A program made the position numbers and the translations under genes. Source: Chthoniobacterales bacterium (lineage in GTDB: Bacteria > Verrucomicrobiota > Verrucomicrobiia > Chthoniobacterales > UBA10450). Taken from it: 64,000 nucleotides of DNA. Shown here one piece after another: positions 3,026 through 47,105 of the stretch (within the stretch, counting starts at the first letter, position 1; each line of letters starts with the position of its first letter). The notes under the pieces were generated by a model. It saw only the letters and a list, made by a program, of their open reading frames with translations. It made no database searches and was not told where the DNA came from. The DNA is taken from NCBI GenBank assembly GCA_035556975.1, contig DATMEN010000004.1, positions 239,988 to 303,987 on the forward strand, read 5' to 3'.

Positions 3026-3089
3026 CAAGGAGCGGCGGCCTCCAGACCGCCGTGGGAAGGCGGGCGGTTTGGAAAGCGCCCCTCCTTGG
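3026..3089. repeat. REP-A palindromic doublet (degenerate second arm)
   Basis: CAAGGAGCGGCGGCCTCCAGACCGCCG ... GCGGGCGGTTTGGAAAGCGCCCCTCCTTGG. Confidence 0.8.
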
Positions 3090-3857: not shown

Positions 3858-4832
3858 ATGGCTTTTACCCGCGCCGGCGCCTTCGAATACCTGAGCCGCG
3901 CCCATGAAAATGGCCGCCTCGCTCATGCTTACCTGATCTCTGGACCGCCCGGCAGCGGCAAGCGCGGACTCGCCACCGACCTTTCCAATCTCGTCACGAC
4001 GGGAAAGGCGCCTGATGTCTTTGCTTCCCAGCCGCCCGGGGTTTACCTGGCCGAACCGGAATCGAAATCGCGCCGCATCGTGATCGATCAAGTGCGCGGG
4101 CTCGAGCATGCCCTCCAGATGCGGGCCGCGGGCGGACGGCGGAAAGTGGCGATTGTGGCCGAGGCGGACCGGCTCCAACCCCAGGCGGCCAACGCTTTTC
4201 TCAAGACCCTGGAAGAGCCGCCTAACGACTCGCTCCTGCTCCTCTTGAGTTCGATGCCGGAGGTTCTGCCGGACACGATTCTCTCCCGTTGCATCGCTAT
4301 TCCCCTGGTGGCGGAAGAGAAGGCGGCGCCTTCGCGGGAAGAAGAAGAATTGGTTGAGCTGCTCGGCACCGTCGCGGCTCCCGAAGCGCAGGGCGTTCAA
4401 CACGCCTACCGGCTCGCGCGCGGCTTTCATCGCCTGCTGGCCCAAATACGGGAAACGATCCAGCTCGAGAACGCGGCCGCTTTGAAGCGCGACGAGGCGC
4501 GCTACAAGAACACCACGGATGGAGCCTGGCTCGACGAACGCGAGGACTATTTCAAGGCCCTGACGGAAAGCCAGTACGTGCGCCAGCGCTCCCGGCTTCT
4601 CGAAGTGCTCTTTCTCTGGTGGTCAGACGTCCTTCGCGCCAGCACGAATGTGGCGCGGCGTGAACTGCCTTCCGCGAGCGATCGGACGCGCCTCCTCGCG
4701 CAGAAACTGTCGACCGCGGAAATTCTACGGCGAATCCGGCGCCTCGAGGAATTGCGGGATCATCTCGGGCGAAACATCCAGGAAGCTCTTGCGATCGAAG
4801 TGGCCTTCCTGAGCGTGTTTACATTTCAATAG
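3858..4832 (+). CDS. holB: DNA polymerase III delta-prime subunit
   Basis: GRLAHAYLISGPPGSGKRGLA, AANAFLKTLEEPP, ILSRC. It starts 8 nt after tmk, which is the classic tmk-holB pairing. Confidence 0.85.
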   Translation: MAFTRAGAFEYLSRAHENGRLAHAYLISGPPGSGKRGLATDLSNLVTTGKAPDVFASQPPGVYLAEPESKSRRIVIDQVRGLEHALQMRAAGGRRKVAIVAEADRLQPQAANAFLKTLEEPPNDSLLLLLSSMPEVLPDTILSRCIAIPLVAEEKAAPSREEEELVELLGTVAAPEAQGVQHAYRLARGFHRLLAQIRETIQLENAAALKRDEARYKNTTDGAWLDEREDYFKALTESQYVRQRSRLLEVLFLWWSDVLRASTNVARRELPSASDRTRLLAQKLSTAEILRRIRRLEELRDHLGRNIQEALAIEVAFLSVFTFQ

Positions 4833-4919
4833 AGCGCACACACCGCGGCGCTCAACCATGCTCGACCTGTGAAGGATTTAGGGCGCCTGCGCATCCAGGC
4901 GATTAGCGCCCGCTCTCGG

Positions 4920-5195
4920 TCATTGCGTAACCCAATCCGCGCACAGCACCTCGGCTTGGGCGAGAACGGTCTTGGTAGCCCCTTCCTTGAGGTCCGGGGG
5001 ATAGCCGTGTTTACGGAGGATGCGTGTCACTCGATGGCCGCGCGCAATCGCGCGGAAAGAATTACGCCGCCAAAAGATGCGCGTTCGGCCGCGCCCCCCG
5101 TCCGGCGGCAGTTTCAGCGCCTGTTCGACGGTGTATCCGAGCTCTCTGAACCACGTCAGCGCAGCTTCTTCGACGACAGATTCGGTGAAACTCAT
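4920..5195 (-). pseudogene. hsdR: Type I restriction subunit R relic (N-terminal ~57 codons joined to C-terminal ~30 codons)
   Basis: [23 protein letters not shown] is an HsdR N-terminus. Removing one G from the homopolymer at 5094-5099 gives [25 protein letters not shown], the next HsdR segment. The tail [28 protein letters not shown] is the HsdR C-terminal (DUF3387-like) motif. The nuclease/helicase core of roughly 900 aa is missing. Confidence 0.75.
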
Positions 5196-5208
5196 TACGT
5201 CTCGCGTC

Positions 5209-7044
5209 TTATTTCGTCATCGACATCGAAAGTCCGAGCTTCCATCGAGTATTCGCGACTTCGGATACGACCGTGTAGTAGGTCGAATCACTCGAGAGAA
5301 CAAGAACGTCATCGTCTTGCTGAACCGGCACAACGCTCTTTGTAATATGCCGCACCAGTTGATCCCGACGGCTCAAGCCAAGCAGTTTCTGATACGGATA
5401 ACCTGCGTTGCATTCGGGTGGCTCATGGCTGTCCCCGTCCCACGCTACTGACGAAACCCCAAATTCGCCGAATGCAGGCAGAAGACATACACCATTGCTG
5501 TCTGTTAAGATGAACCCGCGTTTGCTTTGCCATGCTGCTTCTGCCAACTCGATCGGGACTCGCCACTGGCCTATTTGAGCCGCCGCAAACATTAAGCCCG
5601 CGAATGTTCCGTTCGGATTTAGGAGTGGCTGGCAGAGAAAGAATGTGCCGTGTTTGTTGTAAAGCGACGCTACTTGGTCAGAGACAAATGCCTTCCTAAA
5701 TGAGTTGGCTATTTGAAAGTATGGGCGCTCGGAAACTCCACGGCTTGTGATATCCGCCTTCCGAGCAACTGATAGTCCTTTTGGCAATGAGCACGCGAGG
5801 ATTTGCCCGGCTTCGTTTGCGACATATAGGCCTTGGGCAGCCAGAGGACCGAGGCTCGTTTGAAGGCGATCGAGCCAGTCCGCGGGTCCGCTTTCGTGGA
5901 TGAGCTTGAGAGCATTCCCATTCTCTCGCGCGAGGGCGTCGAGTCCCTCGTTCAAAGGGTCTTCAATCTGTGAAATGACCGACGAGAGATCCACATCGAG
6001 CCTTGCTTCAGTATCGGTGTGAAGAGCTAACGTTTTTGAAAGGATCAGGTCTGAGAGAGCCGCCGCCAACGCATGTGAACGGATTGTGGCTGGATCGGCC
6101 GGCAACACGGACGGAGGTGTCAAAGCAACAATTCCGCGTGCGGCAAAGATTTCTGGGGTATGCGAGCGCATATCAAACTGCAGGCTGTAGAATTGAGGCC
6201 ACTCCGTTGTTCGATGATGCGGATTGTTTTCGAACTGGTGAATGGCATCATCCACCAGGCGCGACACTTCTGGATCGCGGTGGCTGAATCCGACAAACAA
6301 CGTGTGCCTCTTCCGCAATAGTTCGATCAACAGGTTGAAGAATTCCGCATTAGCGCGGTAGTGGTGGCGATAATCCCGTCTGGTCAGGATGAGATGTTCG
6401 TCGAGACGCGAAACACAGCCATGGATCTTGAATAGGACCGAGCCCGGCCGGCGCCCCCCAATGATCTCGCGAGCAGTGGGTAGATGCGTATCATTCGTTG
6501 CGATAAATAACTCAGAACGCCCTAGCGACGACCACGCTTTTTCGAAAAGCGCGTCATAGTTAGTAGTGACGTAGATTTTGCAACCCAGTTCCGCCAATAG
6601 TCTGTGACTAGTCGTAGGCAGTTTGTCGCCCCCGAAGACGTCTCTCAACCTCTGTTGCAGAGTTTCATTTCCGAGAACCTGGGCTGCGAGCTCGGCCAGA
6701 GTAAGCGGATCGTTCTTTAGGTCCTCATCGTCCACAAGGTTCCTGTCCAACTGGAAGTAGTCGACGAGAAGGCTCTGCCATGACGGAAAGCCTGCCGGAA
6801 GCGAAACTCCCGCCCCGAAAAAAGCCGTCGCATTGTTCGTGCTGAAGCCTTGGACGCAGCGAGGCGGCCAGAACGTGGAAATATCTCGCCAACTGACTTC
6901 GTCTTTTCGGAATCGTTTGAGAGACTCGTCAATCCACGAAGCCGATTCCTTCGCTACAAGAGGGTCGGAGAATCGGTCGCTTCTTTCCTTTAGGTTTTTG
7001 GCCAGCAGGACGGCAGGGGCGGCTTGAGCCGGAGTCGTCTTCAT
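5209..7044 (-). CDS. SIR2-like (SIR2_2 type) NADase domain fused to a C-terminal Cache/PDC-like sensor domain
   Basis: 611 aa. The N-terminal part has [47 protein letters not shown] and [11 protein letters not shown]. The C-terminal ~210 aa has [64 protein letters not shown] and [18 protein letters not shown]. There is no TM segment or signal peptide. Confidence 0.7.
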
Positions 7045-7148
7045 ATGTGGGGGCCAATTGTTGAAGGGCAGCGAAGTTCGCCGCTCAGTAGCTTTGGCAG
7101 CAGCGTGTCGCGCAGCGTAGCGAGGGTGCGGGATTCGGTGGCACTCAT
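7041..7148 (-). pseudogene. hsdS: Type I specificity subunit C-terminal relic (35 codons)
   Basis: Own translation (below the ORF-track cutoff): [35 protein letters not shown]. RDxLLPKLLSGEL is the conserved HsdS C-terminal helix. Its TGA overlaps the SIR2 gene ATG (ATGA), and its ATG shares one nt with the stop of the upstream gene. Confidence 0.7.
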
Positions 7149-7996
7149 CATGAGATTGGCGCGACCATACTGCGCTTTGCTTTTAGGCCGACAAGAGCCG
7201 CCCTCAAAACTTGTAGGCAAATTTGTGCCGTATGCTCGTCCGGTTGGAAACCTGATGCCATCTGTTCATACGGGTGGATGTAGTTCCTGAAGTCCCGGAC
7301 AGCGTGCCCGAACTTTTTCACATCAAGACGCAGCACTCCGACTTCGTGGGCAACATCAATAAGGTTCGCGAGGGTCCATTCATGAAATGCACGGACCTTC
7401 CCTGTTTCCTTTTCTTTTGGGCTTGCCGCAGCCCGATTGAACTCAGCGGGATTCTTCAAAGCTACGGCCAAAAGGATTCCTTCAAGAATGCTCCCGCACA
7501 TGAAGACTGTTGAAAGCGGAGCACCACCGCCAACGCACTCCACCGCTTCTTTCACCCTTGCCGTTAGTATGCGTTCAATGCTGTGGTCCAAATCCAACCC
7601 TTCAACGGAGATCGCGCCGAAATCTCGCTTGAGGAAATCGGACTCTGTTTCCTGCTTTAGCTCCCTCCCCAGAAGGCGCGCCGCCGTTCGACTACACTCT
7701 TCATATTGCCGGTCAGCACGCTCGTTCTTGCCAGGGTCATTGAGGTATCGCCATACCTCCAGAAGTTGTTCCAAAGCCCTCCCGACATTTGCAGGCGTTT
7801 CGATTTCCCAGAACGCTCGAAGTCGCTTTGCCTTCGATGTGCCGTTGAAAGCGTAGCGCGGATCATAAATGTTTGTTCCTACCTCTTGTCGGAAGAACTC
7901 GGCGAACGTCCTATCAGAAAAGTTTAGGACATATCCACTGGTCATGCCGAATAGGTCTTCGAATCTTTGCTTCTCGATCGTTGAAAGAGCACTCAT
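7148..7996 (-). CDS. Hypothetical protein with a HEPN-like C-terminal four-helix region (283 aa)
   Basis: ORF 7148..8242 trimmed to ATG 7994-7996: [35 protein letters not shown].... The C-terminus reads [16 protein letters not shown]...[14 protein letters not shown]...[16 protein letters not shown] (an R-x6-H / RNxxH motif). The upstream 82 codons of the long ORF are an alternate frame over the hsdS relic. Confidence 0.6.
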
Positions 7997-8334
7997 GCAG
8001 AGATCTCTTTTCCTACTCCGATTACCCAAAAGTCTTTGTCGCACAATTCGATGCCCCGCGGTCCTTGTCCTTTTCTTCCGAGGATTAGACCAGGCGCTTC
8101 GGCTAGCGGTGCGTCGTGCCAGCCACATTGCCCGTTGGTGCCGAACACGGGCACCTTTCCCAGACTTCGCGTGTCGGCTTTCAACGCGCGTCCGTAGTTC
8201 AACGAGACAAGCTTCCGAGCCGGGACTAGAGGCCATCGCCATTCAGTGTCTCTTGCGAGACCGCCAGGGTAGGTGGTTCCGGGCTGCGACGAATCTTCAA
8301 TCGTCGATGGGCTGATTTTAGGAGAAGATCGCAT
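7993..8334 (-). pseudogene. hsdS: Type I specificity subunit 5' relic (first target-recognition domain only)
   Basis: MRSSPK...[21 protein letters not shown]...[47 protein letters not shown] is the HsdS TRD pattern. It breaks off after FWVI, where the embedded gene starts. Confidence 0.7.
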
Positions 8335-8559
8335 CGTCAACGTCTGCCGTTGTAACGGGTCTGCCTCGTTCAACTGCCAAGAGCAAGAGCAAGAGTCTTC
8401 AAACGTGTCCGAGATGTACTTGAGGAAGATCAGGCCGAGGACGACGTGCTTGTACTCCCCCGCGTCCATGTTGCTACGGAGCCTGTCCGCGGCGAGCCAC
8501 AGCTTGGCTTCGAAGCCGAGATCAGCGGAGGAGTTCTTGGAGGAGCGAGCGCGAGCCAT
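8335..8559 (-). pseudogene. hsdM: Type I methyltransferase subunit relic (N-terminal 54 codons plus short tail)
   Basis: [54 protein letters not shown] is the HsdM N-terminal domain. It is followed by (CTCTTG)3 and about 20 more codons. The methyltransferase core is absent. Confidence 0.75.
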
Positions 8560-8640
8560 GGAGGTAGATGTTTCTACCGCAATGCCTGCCGAAATCGAGG
8601 CGAATTCCTCAACGCCCGTTAGCCCGAGGTCGCCGCAAAC

Positions 8641-8704
8641 CAAGGAGCGGCGGTTTGGAACCGCCGACCTAACAAAACGGCGGTTTCAAACCGCCGCTCC
8701 TTGG
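8641..8704. repeat. REP-A palindromic doublet
   Basis: CAAGGAGCGGCGGTTTGGAACCGCCG acctaacaaaa CGGCGGTTTCAAACCGCCGCTCCTTGG. Confidence 0.9.
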
Positions 8705-8745: not shown

Positions 8746-9489
8746 ATGAGATTCGAAAATCAGGTTGCGGTGGTCACGGGGGCGGGGCGGGGAATCGGGC
8801 ACGCCATTGCCGTGCGCCTCGCGAGCGAGGGCGCGCGTGTCGCCTCGGTGAGCCGAACCGAAGCAAACGCCAATAAAACCGCGGCGGAGATCAACGGCGC
8901 CTGCGCGGATGCGTCGAAGGCTTATGCCGTCGATGTGGCAGACCATGCCGCCGTCCAAAAAATTGGGGCCCAGATCCTGGAAGACTTCGGTCGCGTCGAC
9001 ATTCTGGTGAATAATGCCGGCGTCACCCGCGATGGCCTCAGTATGCGGATGTCGGTCGAAGATTGGGACACCGTCCTGAACACGAACTTGAAAGGCGCCT
9101 TCAGTTTTACGCAGGCCTTGATGCGGCCGATGATCAAGCAGCGGAGCGGCCGGATCATCAACATCAGCTCGATCAGCGGATTGATCGGCAACGCGGGCCA
9201 GGCGAATTACGCTGCGAGCAAGGCGGGGCTGATTGGGCTTACGAAAACCCTGGCCCGAGAGCTGGCGAGCCGTGGGATCACGGTGAACGCCGTCGCTCCC
9301 GGGTTGATCGAGACGGACATGACCACCGTGCTTTCCGACGAAATTCGTCAATCCATTTTGCAGAAGGTCCCGCTCGGCAAATTGGGGCAACCGGACGATA
9401 TCGCCGGCGCTGTCGCCTATCTCGCTTCCGCGGAGGCGGCCTATATCACCGGCCAAGTGCTGGCCGTCGACGGCGGCATGGTGATGTAA
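8746..9489 (+). CDS. fabG: 3-oxoacyl-ACP reductase
   Basis: Trimmed to MRFENQVAVVTGAGRGIGHAIA. Also NNAG, YAASKAG (YxxxK) and GITVNAVAPG. Confidence 0.85.
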   Translation: MRFENQVAVVTGAGRGIGHAIAVRLASEGARVASVSRTEANANKTAAEINGACADASKAYAVDVADHAAVQKIGAQILEDFGRVDILVNNAGVTRDGLSMRMSVEDWDTVLNTNLKGAFSFTQALMRPMIKQRSGRIINISSISGLIGNAGQANYAASKAGLIGLTKTLARELASRGITVNAVAPGLIETDMTTVLSDEIRQSILQKVPLGKLGQPDDIAGAVAYLASAEAAYITGQVLAVDGGMVM

Positions 9490-9497
9490 TTCTTTCC

Positions 9498-9563
9498 CAA
9501 GGAGCGGCGGTCTCCAGACCGCCGACCTAAAAACAACGGCGGTTTGTAAACCGCCGCTCCTTG
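9498..9563. repeat. REP-A palindromic doublet
   Basis: CAAGGAGCGGCGGTCTCCAGACCGCCG ... CGGCGGTTTGTAAACCGCCGCTCCTTG. Confidence 0.9.
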
Positions 9564-10914: not shown

Positions 10915-11610
10915 ATGAAGCGCGAAGTCATTCGCTCCAGCAACTTCGTGGCGGACGCGGCCGAGTTCATCCTCCAGCACGCGCGCACGGCGCTGGCGGA
11001 ACGCGACCAATTTCGAATCGCGCTCTCGGGTGGAAACACTCCGCGCCCGGTCTACACCGAGCTGGCCAGGATTGGGCGGGACCTTCCGTGGGACCGGATC
11101 TATTTTACCTTCGGCGACGAGCGGTGTGTGCCGCCGGAGGATGAGCAAAGCAATTACCGCATGGCCCGCGAAACACTTTTCGCTCCCGCGGCCGTGCCAG
11201 AGAAATCGATCGCGCGGATCCGGGGCGAGAGCGAGCCGCAGATCGCGGCCCAGGAATACCAGGACGGGCTGGACCTTCTCGCTGCTCAAGGCGGCGAAAT
11301 GATCTACCGGCACGACCTGATCCTCCTGGGGATGGGAGACGACGGGCACACGGCTTCTTTGTTTCCGGGAACGGCGGCGTTGGAGGAAAAAACACGCAAG
11401 GTGGCGGCCAACTTCGTTCCAAAATTCGACGCCTGGCGGATCACTTTCACCTTCCCGCTCATCAGCCAGGCGCGTCACATTTGTTTCCTGGCGAACGCGA
11501 ACAAAAACAGGGCGCTGCTCGAGAAGGTGCTGCAAGGCGACCGCCAGTATCCCGCGGCCCAGGTCGAACCCTCGAACGGCGGCCTGACCTGGATTCTCGG
11601 TGAGTCATAG
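10915..11610 (+). CDS. pgl: 6-phosphogluconolactonase
   Basis: [12 protein letters not shown] and [15 protein letters not shown]. Confidence 0.85.
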
Positions 11611-14217: not shown

Positions 14218-14294
14218 CAAGGAGCGGCGGTTTTCCAACCGCCGACGCGCCATAACTGGCCACGGTGGGCGGTTTGGAAACCGCCCCTCCTTGG
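14218..14294. repeat. REP-A palindromic doublet
   Basis: CAAGGAGCGGCGGTTTTCCAACCGCCG ... GGGCGGTTTGGAAACCGCCCCTCCTTGG. Confidence 0.9.
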
Positions 14295-26523: not shown

Positions 26524-26589
26524 CAAGGAGCGGCGGTTTACAAACCGCCGTCGTTCCTGGTTCGGCGGTTTGTAAACCGCCGCTCCTTG
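26524..26589. repeat. REP-A palindromic doublet (followed by a REP-B half-site at about 26596-26609)
   Basis: CAAGGAGCGGCGGTTTACAAACCGCCG ... CGGCGGTTTGTAAACCGCCGCTCCTTG, then GAAGCATGTCCCTCC. Confidence 0.9.
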
Positions 26590-43414: not shown

Positions 43415-44617
43415 ATGCGCGAAGTCGCCTACCTGCTCGAGCGATTTCCCTCCTTCGGCCAGACTTTCTGTTATCGCGAGGTGGTGGAGCTGGAGCGCCA
43501 GGGCACAAGAGTTCACGTTTACTCGATCCGGCGGCCGGTCGATGAACCGAAACAGGATTGGGACGAGCAACTCGTCCGCCGGGTGCATTACCTGCCCGAG
43601 GAAGATGCTCTGGTGCGTGAGGTCGACCGGTCGTTGCGCGACGGGAGGGTGTCAGGCGCCACGCGGGAAACGATCGAGAAATGGGGCCGGCAATCGGACT
43701 TTCTGCGGCTTTATCAGGCCGTTTATCTGGGAACGCGCATGCAACAAGACGGTGTGCGGCGCCTTCACGCGCATTTTGCCGGAATGGCGGCGCGAACGGC
43801 ATTTTGGATCAATCAATTCTTCGGAATTCCTTACAGCTTCACCGCGCACGCGAACGACATCTTTGCGCCGCGGGATTTCGCCGTTTCACTGGCGAAATTG
43901 CTGGAAAACGCGGCGGCGATCGTGACGGTGAGCGATTACGCGGCGGAGTTTCTTCGGAACCGTTTTCCCGAAGCGGCCGCGAAAGTGCATCGAATCTACA
44001 ACGGGGTGGATCTATCTCGTTTCCATCCGGTTGACTTTGGCAGCGGAACTCCAGCGATCGTCTCCATCGGCCGATTGATCGAGAAAAAGGGGTTCGCCGA
44101 TCTCATCAGCGCCTGTCGCCTCCTCAAGCCGCGTGGGCGTCCGTTCATTTGCGAAATTGTCGGCGAAGGCCCGCTCGAGCCGGCGCTGCGAGCTCAGATC
44201 GTTCGGGACGGTCTGGAATCGTGCGTGAAATTGGCCGGGCCCCAGACCCAATCCCAGATCGCGCTGCGCCTCGCGCACGCCACGATCTTTGCCCTGCCCT
44301 GCACGCGGGAAGAGAGTGGGGGGATGGACAATTTGCCGACCGTTATCATGGAAGCCATGGCCGCGGGGTTGCCGGTTATTTCGACGCCAATCGCGGGCGT
44401 TCCGGAAATGGTCGAGCACGACTCGAGCGGAATCCTGGTTCCAGAACATGAACCCGGGGCGGTTTGCGCTGCGCTCGAATATTTGATCGCCAATCCTGAG
44501 CAGGCGCGAAGATTCGGCGACCGGGGCCGGCAGATCGCGAGGGACAAATTCTCGATTGAAGCAAGCGGCCGTGCTTTGCGCGCGCTTTTCGTCAACATTC
44601 AAGGAGCGGCGGTTTGA
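43415..44617 (+). CDS. Group 1 (GT4) glycosyltransferase
   Basis: REESGGMDNLPTVIMEAMAAGLPVISTPIAGVPEMVEH (E-x7-E region). The last 6 codons and the stop lie within a REP-A element. Confidence 0.8.
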   Translation: MREVAYLLERFPSFGQTFCYREVVELERQGTRVHVYSIRRPVDEPKQDWDEQLVRRVHYLPEEDALVREVDRSLRDGRVSGATRETIEKWGRQSDFLRLYQAVYLGTRMQQDGVRRLHAHFAGMAARTAFWINQFFGIPYSFTAHANDIFAPRDFAVSLAKLLENAAAIVTVSDYAAEFLRNRFPEAAAKVHRIYNGVDLSRFHPVDFGSGTPAIVSIGRLIEKKGFADLISACRLLKPRGRPFICEIVGEGPLEPALRAQIVRDGLESCVKLAGPQTQSQIALRLAHATIFALPCTREESGGMDNLPTVIMEAMAAGLPVISTPIAGVPEMVEHDSSGILVPEHEPGAVCAALEYLIANPEQARRFGDRGRQIARDKFSIEASGRALRALFVNIQGAAV

Positions 44618-44662
44618 AACCGCCGTTTACATTGTCGGCGGTTGCAAACCGCCGCTCCTTGG
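44600..44662. repeat. REP-A palindromic doublet
   Basis: CAAGGAGCGGCGGTTTGAAACCGCCG ... CGGCGGTTGCAAACCGCCGCTCCTTGG. Confidence 0.9.
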
Positions 44663-47042: not shown

Positions 47043-47105
47043 CAAGGAGCGGCGATTTTCAATCGCCGATCAATTAAAACGGCGGTTTCAAACCGCCGCT
47101 CCTTG
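47043..47105. repeat. REP-A palindromic doublet
   Basis: CAAGGAGCGGCGATTTTCAATCGCCG ... CGGCGGTTTCAAACCGCCGCTCCTTG. Confidence 0.9.

Follow-up and report, generated by a model that had tools for sequence, protein, structure and literature searches.

A Type I restriction-modification operon reduced to stubs, with two intact embedded genes, between holB and fabG of a soil Verrucomicrobia genome

We describe a locus in a 64-kb stretch of a soil Verrucomicrobia genome (hereafter the window), where the remains of a Type I restriction-modification (R-M) operon and two genes embedded in it lie between holB and fabG. Six elements occupy the minus strand of 8559-4920: remnants of hsdM and hsdS, a gene for a 282-amino-acid (aa) HEPN-like protein, a 35-codon piece of hsdS, a gene for a 611-aa SIR2 protein, and a remnant of hsdR. 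An earlier note on this DNA had proposed this layout, and the open reading frame (ORF) list, Pfam and PADLOC place every element at the positions it gave; its figure of 283 for the HEPN-like gene counts the stop codon, and the N-terminal hsdM piece, put there at 54 codons, comprises codons 1-55. The Type I R-M genes at the locus are dead, whereas both embedded (cargo) genes are intact.

The two upstream remnants, hsdM′ and hsdS′, share one reading frame and form a single 188-codon ORF (8559-7993) that still opens with the start codon of the original hsdM and closes with the stop codon of the original hsdS; NCBI names its product an HsdM N-terminal domain-containing protein (P0241). The ORF begins, with the ATG at 8559, as an hsdM remnant of 55 codons (8559-8395), whose product is 89% identical in tblastn to residues 1-57 of the 537-residue HsdM of an intact relative, L001, and retains only HsdM_N, at positions 2-41 of 135 of the Pfam model. 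A linker follows (8394-8299) that cannot be matched significantly to the ends of hsdM or hsdS in L001 or in a second intact relative, L002; it is probably the divergent 3′ end of hsdM together with the hsdS 5′ leader. The next segment (8298-8020) is a fragment of the first target recognition domain (TRD) of HsdS, 72% identical in amino acids to residues 4-96 of 437 in L002 HsdS and covering positions 3-74 of PADLOC Specificity_I. It is joined in frame, at a GGGTRATYG microhomology, to the last 8 codons and stop of hsdS (8019-7993), which resemble the native 3′ end of L001 hsdS; blastn homology to L001 begins at 8011. The deletions in hsdM and hsdS are both in frame, and the hsdS′ stop overlaps the ATG of the 282-aa gene (ATGA), as it does in intact L001. 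Such ATGA overlaps continue unbroken along hsdS′, the 282-aa gene, the 35-codon mini-ORF and the SIR2 gene.

At the other end of the locus, the 91-codon hsdR′ (5195-4920) is a chimera of the N- and C-terminal ends of HsdR. Its 5′ remnant of 162 nt (5195-5034) encodes HsdR residues 1-31 in frame and residues 35-67 in the +1 frame, shifted by one additional G within the G-run at 5099-5094, and the last ~35 codons (5030-4920) return to the frame of the ATG. The product of these 3′ ~110 nt aligns to positions 287-328 of 329 in Pfam T1RH-like_C and is 85% identical in amino acids to L001 HsdR residues 1013-1045; DNA alignment places the junction at about 5034-5026. The 5′ remnant ends (5034, codon ~55) at the endpoint of a 166-nt duplicated hsdR 5′ scar in intact L002 (L002:10025-10030). 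This shared endpoint may reflect coincidence, a recombination-prone site or an inherited scar, and the hsdR 5′ piece of the window may itself be inherited in this way.

Across the three remnants no N6_Mtase, second TRD, ResIII, helicase or nuclease domain is left, and no further hsd gene lies within the 64-kb window. A functional Type I system requires the N6_Mtase catalytic domain in HsdM, two TRDs with the central and C-terminal conserved regions in HsdS, and nuclease, ResIII/helicase and C-terminal domains in HsdR; in the window no subunit retains its full set. The proposal that the R-M locus had been cut to stubs of hsdM, hsdS and hsdR devoid of catalytic cores is thus confirmed by the ORFs, by Pfam and PADLOC, and by comparison with intact relatives.

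The window belongs to a metagenome-assembled genome, whose assembler could in principle have collapsed a full-length R-M operon or joined hsd segments of different community members. A contig from an independent Logan assembly (SRR7976076) is 100% identical over 8436-5148 and spans the hsdM/linker and hsdS junctions, so that two assemblers agree on both. The hsdR junction lies outside that contig and is supported by a single assembly, and the Logan contig ends, at 8436 and 5148, inside conserved N-terminal coding sequence of hsdM and hsdR, which suggests graph branching with other Type I loci. The junctions nevertheless join non-homologous positions, which repeat collapse would not yield; the microhomology at the hsdS junction is typical of real deletions, and the flanks run on into syntenic host genes on a 392-kb contig. 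An NCBI entry from a Chthoniobacterales metagenome-assembled genome has the same SIR2 protein sequence as the window. We give an assembly artefact next to no credence.

The first cargo gene (7996-7148) encodes the 282-aa protein, whose best relatives are 92-93% identical; the L001 homologue, at 92%, yields a ratio of nonsynonymous to synonymous substitution rates (dN/dS) of 0.087. An Rx6H motif, RDFRNYIH (R234 to H241), is invariant across 32 family sequences, 22 of which match Pfam DUF4145 (best E 5.3e-6), and the window protein departs from the family at none of the 82 columns that are ≥95% conserved. DUF4145 belongs to the HEPN superfamily and occurs in R-M operons (Anantharaman et al., PMC3710099). 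The AlphaFold2 model is all-alpha, with a predicted local distance difference test score (pLDDT) of 87.5; no match to the sequence was found in the PDB, NCBIfam or PADLOC, and a structure search with the model gave no significant match in the PDB or BFVD. From motif and homologues, we predict a DUF4145-type HEPN protein and candidate RNase. Its family numbers >3,500 homologues at E ≤1e-3, with identities of up to 85% across phyla (e.g., Thiobacillus), and is without a model of its own in Pfam, NCBIfam or PADLOC. In a metagenome scan of 80 further loci, most homologues start on an hsdS stop codon, and one subgroup is found after a large methyltransferase and before a DEAD/ResIII helicase. The genes downstream include hsdR, DUF3644 (a frequent neighbor), SIR2-Piwi, AbiJ_NTD3-TIR, UvrD-like helicase, DUF6119 and PhoD-like genes. 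At one such locus (L118:7001-10969) the gene after the homologue encodes a 1041-aa SIR2_2 protein that matches Piwi weakly (E 1.6e-4); this is a short-Argonaute-like fusion protein in an R-M setting.

The second cargo gene (7044-5209) encodes a 611-aa protein that combines a SIR2 domain of the ThsA/DSR NADase type with a cytoplasmic, dCache-like C-terminal domain. The SIR2 assignment is secure in Pfam (SIR2_2, E 2.3e-24, 86.5 bits vs a cutoff of 24.5), and N162 and H208, invariant in 35 family sequences, align to N112 and H152 of BcThsA, which we take to be the catalytic residues of ThsA. None of the 104 family columns that are ≥95% conserved deviates in the window protein, whose nearest relative is 69% identical. 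Its AlphaFold2 model (pLDDT 87.8) has an alpha/beta C-terminal half, and the Foldseek matches to the model include ThsA and DSR2, at E about 1e-12, and 5ere. The nature of the C-terminal half is indicated at the family level, where 25 of the 35 members match dCache_1 (best E 4.2e-8), and by a weak KinD match (NCBIfam, E 0.0012); typical Cache domains have flanking transmembrane helices, and this protein has no transmembrane segment. Among 1.84 billion representatives, the matches to this half amount to only 63 clusters at 50% identity, and almost all are ~600-aa proteins of the same layout or fragments of such proteins. We found no paper in the published literature on SIR2 joined to Cache or dCache, and neither this family nor that of the 282-aa protein has a dedicated model in PADLOC v2. 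SIR2-dCache is a small, undescribed variant of SIR2 defence effectors. It lies behind hsdS in Type I operons in the window, in L002 and its fellow L003, and on a Chlorobium contig; elsewhere it stands alone, in settings of a defence type beside RadC and a TIR-STAND protein (L004/5), beside GmrSD (L168) and in an integrase island with TIR-KAP and Hen1/Pnkp (L169), and also on a Planctomycetota contig (L006).

How the two cargo genes came together is recorded in the mini-ORF between them (7148-7041, 35 codons), which has ATGA overlaps at both ends. It matches the C-terminal ends of the PADLOC Specificity_I models (best E 2.6e-9) and corresponds to HsdS residues 410-436 of 447. The intact operon of L001 reads hsdM-hsdS-282aa-51aa stub-PhoD-like-hsdR, and those of L002 and L003 read hsdM-hsdS-SIR2 (616 aa)-56aa hsdR stub-RhuM-hsdR. 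Window positions 8011-7078 align to L001 at 89.6% nucleotide identity; the match starts with the final 19 nt of hsdS, takes in the 282-aa gene and ends inside the 51-aa ORF, which duplicates the hsdS 3′ end. Positions 7135-5033 align to L002 at 65%, a stretch that begins in the hsdS 3′ end, includes SIR2 and closes with the 56-aa ORF, itself a duplicate of the hsdR 5′ end. Within the mini-ORF, accordingly, the 5′ part adjoins the 282-aa gene without a break, in the manner of L001, and the 3′ part adjoins the SIR2 gene, in the manner of L002. Because the window maps on both relatives and the 51-aa ORF is a copy of the hsdS 3′ end, the mini-ORF is at once an inherited duplication scar and the joint at which L001-like and L002-like sequences recombined. 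The earlier note had taken this piece for a decay relic of hsdS. That origin we reject: the upstream hsdS′ still ends in its own native stop codon, and a homologous stub accompanies the 282-aa gene in L001, whose operon is intact.

Repeats of the same kind bracket cargo in other operons. In L001 a 68-nt direct repeat of the hsdS 3′ end (78% identity; L001:7907-7974 and 8862-8929) encloses the 282-aa gene; in L002 a 166-nt repeat of the hsdR 5′ end (90%; L002:9865-10030 and 11176-11341) encloses RhuM; and in L147 a 130-nt repeat of a methyltransferase 3′ end (82%; L147:1795-1924 and 2839-2968) encloses a homologue of the 282-aa gene. These scars suggest that cargo was inserted through recombination at conserved ends of R-M genes. 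We also asked whether insertions of the 282-aa gene generally carry direct repeats, and rejected the idea: of 62 testable loci only 4 have significant flanking repeats, with L147 as one further case. More speculatively, cargo cassettes may move between R-M operons via recombination at conserved hsdS 3′ and hsdR 5′ ends, leaving repeat scars such as those in the window, L001, L002 and L147.

The 282-aa gene and the SIR2 gene have separate histories, and the two-gene cassette of the earlier note does not survive this comparison: L001 has the first gene without the second, and L002 and L003 have the second without the first. Their arrangement in the window, adjacent, on the same strand and ATGA-linked through the mini-ORF, is what one would expect of a single obligate two-gene defence system. 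The nearest relatives, however, are unequally close (92% for the 282-aa protein vs 69% for SIR2), the 282-aa gene is present in none of eight SIR2-dCache contexts beyond the window's own contigs, its own neighbors are as varied as listed above, and the recombination joint within the mini-ORF parts the two genes. An obligate pair is highly improbable.

Might the remnants themselves be functional? The HsdM′-HsdS′ fusion or the mini-ORF peptide could be kept because the HEPN protein needs it as partner or inhibitor, which would amount to a pared-down form of the masking of PrrC by EcoprrI. The fusion is in frame, an analogous in-frame fusion has arisen independently in another reduced locus (L170), stub codons show low dN/dS, and in the window as in L001 the mini-ORF is open and overlaps both of its neighbors. 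The fusion breakpoints differ, though, falling at HsdM residue 57 in the window and residue 104 in L170; we found no homologue of the window's fusion architecture beyond its own contig; dN/dS of the mini-ORF is 0.32, over only 26 codons; and most loci of the 282-aa family have no downstream stub, with flanking repeats in 4 of 62. A role for the stubs as partners is very unlikely.

The whole ensemble lies on a horizontally acquired island of about 3.79 kb (4855-8640). Homology to the host's relatives breaks off at 4854 and picks up again at 8641 (in L010) or 8740 (in L007 and L008), and the GC content of the island is 52-56% vs 60-63% in the flanks; the island is of foreign origin. On the left it is flanked by holB (3858-4832, plus strand; DNA polymerase III delta′, Pfam DNA_pol3_delta2) and on the right by a fabG-like short-chain dehydrogenase/reductase gene (8746-9489, plus strand; Pfam adh_short_C2). 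A holB scan of GTDB species representatives yielded 80 loci from Chthoniobacterales and related Verrucomicrobiota, and in none of the 80 do hsd genes, the 282-aa gene or the SIR2 gene occupy the holB-fabG site. The closest relatives (holB 76-88% aa identity) include 13 in which both genes were found, and in 12 of these the gap measures 13-183 bp. The exception, L011 (holB 85%), carries a different insert of 3.45 kb at the same site (L011:10973-14418), with genes for a T5orf172 protein, a DUF2971 protein, a DUF559 endonuclease-like protein and a 61-aa methyltransferase-like stub that has a DPPF motif and a weak Pfam match (E 0.009); in more distant relatives, a housekeeping GFO/IDH/MocA oxidoreductase sits inside the gap. 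The site has been struck at least twice yet is empty in most relatives, so the suggestion that it is a defence-island hotspot finds little support: the gap is essentially empty in 12 of these 13 relatives, and other cargo appears only in L011.

Abutting the island is a host REP-like palindrome (8640-8704, inverted repeat I2), which is found at the same place in L010 and is carried by other relatives too. The mechanical fabG ORF starts within this element, at TTG 8701; relatives begin at ATGAGATTCGAAAAT, which corresponds to ATG 8746, probably the fabG start in the window. The REP-like intergenic palindrome (AAGGAGCGGCGGTTT ... inverted copy) has seven paired copies in the window, at 3027-3087, 8642-8702, 9499-9562, 14219-14292, 26525-26588, 44601-44660 and 47044-47104, and 15 half-sites were found vs 0.36 expected.

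We consider it likely that the locus is a horizontally acquired Type I operon whose own genes were deleted to stubs while two independently acquired, embedded defence genes stayed intact. The ancestral order would have been hsdM-hsdS-[cargo]-hsdR. Before any decay, two independent defence genes would have entered the hsdS-hsdR slot, one being the 282-aa HEPN gene, together with a duplicated hsdS 3′ end, and the other the SIR2-dCache NADase gene. Three illegitimate deletions, at least the one in hsdS at microhomology, and one frameshift would then have stripped the cores of hsdM, hsdS and hsdR. The dead operon would still give the cargo its promoter, start site and translational coupling, and the cargo would function without R-M. 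We posit that SIR2-dCache acts as a single-protein abortive-infection effector, in which the dCache-like domain senses a cue and activates SIR2, leading to NAD+ depletion as in ThsA and DSR, and that the 282-aa protein is a HEPN RNase with its N-terminal helical domain as the trigger sensor. These predicted functions are drawn from motifs, homologues and models.

Evidence that such cargo can be autonomous comes from outside the window, where we found two further loci with a lost host system. L170 (3472-5810) is an independent reduced Type I locus in which hsdM(14-104) and hsdS(25-138) are fused in frame, RhuM is intact (83% identical to that of L003) and hsdR is a stub of residues 2-94. In L006 an 11-codon vestige of an hsdR start, MSFSESIVEQA (L006:9853-9885), lies 13 nt past the stop of the solo SIR2-dCache gene, at the same spacing as in the window. 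Autonomous cargo is therefore supported beyond the window, by these two loci and by the solo SIR2-dCache genes; this much of the earlier note's case for autonomy stands, whereas intactness in the window, to which it appealed, is weak evidence. Large internal deletions of Type I operons appear to be common in environmental genomes: HsdM_N-only proteins of 100-230 aa are numerous on long contigs (P0276, P0258, P0259, P0305).

Several observations weigh against our reading. The stubs have dN/dS of 0.02-0.13, vs 0.087 for the intact 282-aa gene, and show no excess of amino-acid change; the deletions are therefore recent, and intact cargo would be expected even without selection. As a test of selection after R-M loss dN/dS is thus uninformative, the stubs being as constrained as genes and the SIR2 gene being saturated against its nearest intact-operon relative, and the earlier claim that selection kept the cassette after R-M loss cannot be demonstrated in this genome. 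Two in-frame deletions arise by chance about 1 time in 9 under neutrality, which is not significant. P0276, an HsdM_N-HsdR_C fusion, illustrates that a large deletion can strip the entire interior of an operon. A promoter scan of a kind that may not suit Verrucomicrobia found no sigma-70-like site. A look-up of the 91-aa hsdR′ product, aimed at confirming the hsdR junction, returned no record. As to function, the window's own SIR2 protein has no dCache_1 match at E ≤1, and the window's own 282-aa protein has no DUF4145 match at E ≤10 and falls below every Pfam threshold; the best HEPN structure match of its model, 1wol, is weak (Foldseek probability 0.69, TM-score 0.62 on the target, E 2.7). 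A search for other copies of the 188-aa fusion, by which the deletion might be dated, found only the window's own contig.

These observations give some weight to a neutral alternative, in which decay is very recent, the island is dying, and the cargo is intact only because the deletions missed it. The short time since inactivation implied by the stubs, the frameshift that hsdR carries besides its deletion, and the finding that large Type I deletions are common and can take everything, as seen in P0276 and the many HsdM_N-only stubs, all agree with it. Yet neither upstream deletion shifts the reading frame or breaks the native overlap of the hsdS stop with the ATG, L170 and L006 are independent cases of cargo that outlasted R-M, SIR2-dCache stands alone in four other lineages, and neither cargo protein deviates at conserved positions. 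We judge purely neutral decay unlikely, and prefer the reading that self-sufficient cargo was left behind. A bolder, joint version of that reading holds that (i) embedded genes regularly outlive their Type I hosts, (ii) the remains of the operon, namely the hsdM start and the in-frame leader, are shaped as a scaffold for expression and coupling, (iii) SIR2-dCache is an undescribed single-protein immune sensor in which a cytoplasmic ligand-binding domain of the Cache type is coupled to NAD+ depletion, and (iv) the DUF4145-type HEPN protein works without an R-M partner, unlike PrrC. We advance this combination only tentatively, and its four parts may well not all hold together.

R-M decay, Type I-embedded defences, SIR2 NADases and the linkage of HEPN proteins to R-M are all established, and no current view is overturned here. 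Less familiar are a dead host operon with live embedded genes, the SIR2-dCache architecture, and direct-repeat scars where cargo begins and ends. Should the cargo be functional, the locus would be a natural experiment in which Type I-embedded genes prove self-sufficient and are left behind when the host system is lost, with implications for the assembly and erosion of defence islands. Accessory genes embedded between hsd genes are often autonomous and can protect without HsdR (PMC11411939; bioRxiv 10.1101/2024.01.29.577857). Pseudogenised systems were excluded from the systematic survey of embedded defences, and surveys that discard them would miss cases of this kind. The analysis also nominates two candidate families, the small SIR2-dCache family and the very large DUF4145-like HEPN family of the 282-aa protein.

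Among known systems, PrrC and its host EcoprrI offer the closest parallel to the 282-aa protein: in both, a protein with a HEPN motif is encoded directly after hsdS in a Type I operon (for PrrC, between hsdS and hsdR of a Type Ic system), and a second-line RNase beside R-M would be a common logic (PMC3710099). The 282-aa protein differs in having no ABC-ATPase domain and in belonging to a DUF4145-like branch rather than to PrrC/RloC, and latency of the PrrC type cannot operate as described, because the masking R-M partner is gone from the window. For the SIR2 domain, the best sequence and structure match is Thoeris ThsA (PADLOC ThsA, E 2e-33; PDB 7uxt, 8wc0, 6lhx and 8bto), whose Asn and His are conserved in the window protein. 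The C-terminal domain, however, is dCache-like rather than SLOG, the match to PADLOC ThsA is confined to positions 14-216 of 478, and neither the ORF list nor Pfam reveals a ThsB/TIR gene in the island; since ThsB and SLOG are both missing, SIR2-dCache is not Thoeris. Like SIR2-dCache, DSR1 and DSR2 place a SIR2 NADase at the N terminus and a sensor at the C terminus of one polypeptide. They are larger, at about 1000-1200 aa vs 611 aa, and their sensor is a helical-repeat domain, whereas that of the window protein probably has a PDC/dCache fold; the NCBIfam scores, 42.8 bits for Dsr2 and 21.6 bits for Dsr1, lie far below the cutoff of 1400. The locus as a whole also resembles the Type I-embedded defences, such as TgvAB in V. 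cholerae VPI-2, HEC-08 (a DUF3644 HEPN protein) and those of the "guilt by embedding" work (Payne et al. 2024), in which accessory genes likewise lie between hsd genes. In those studies the hosts are intact, whereas in the window the operon is dead and only the embedded genes remain.

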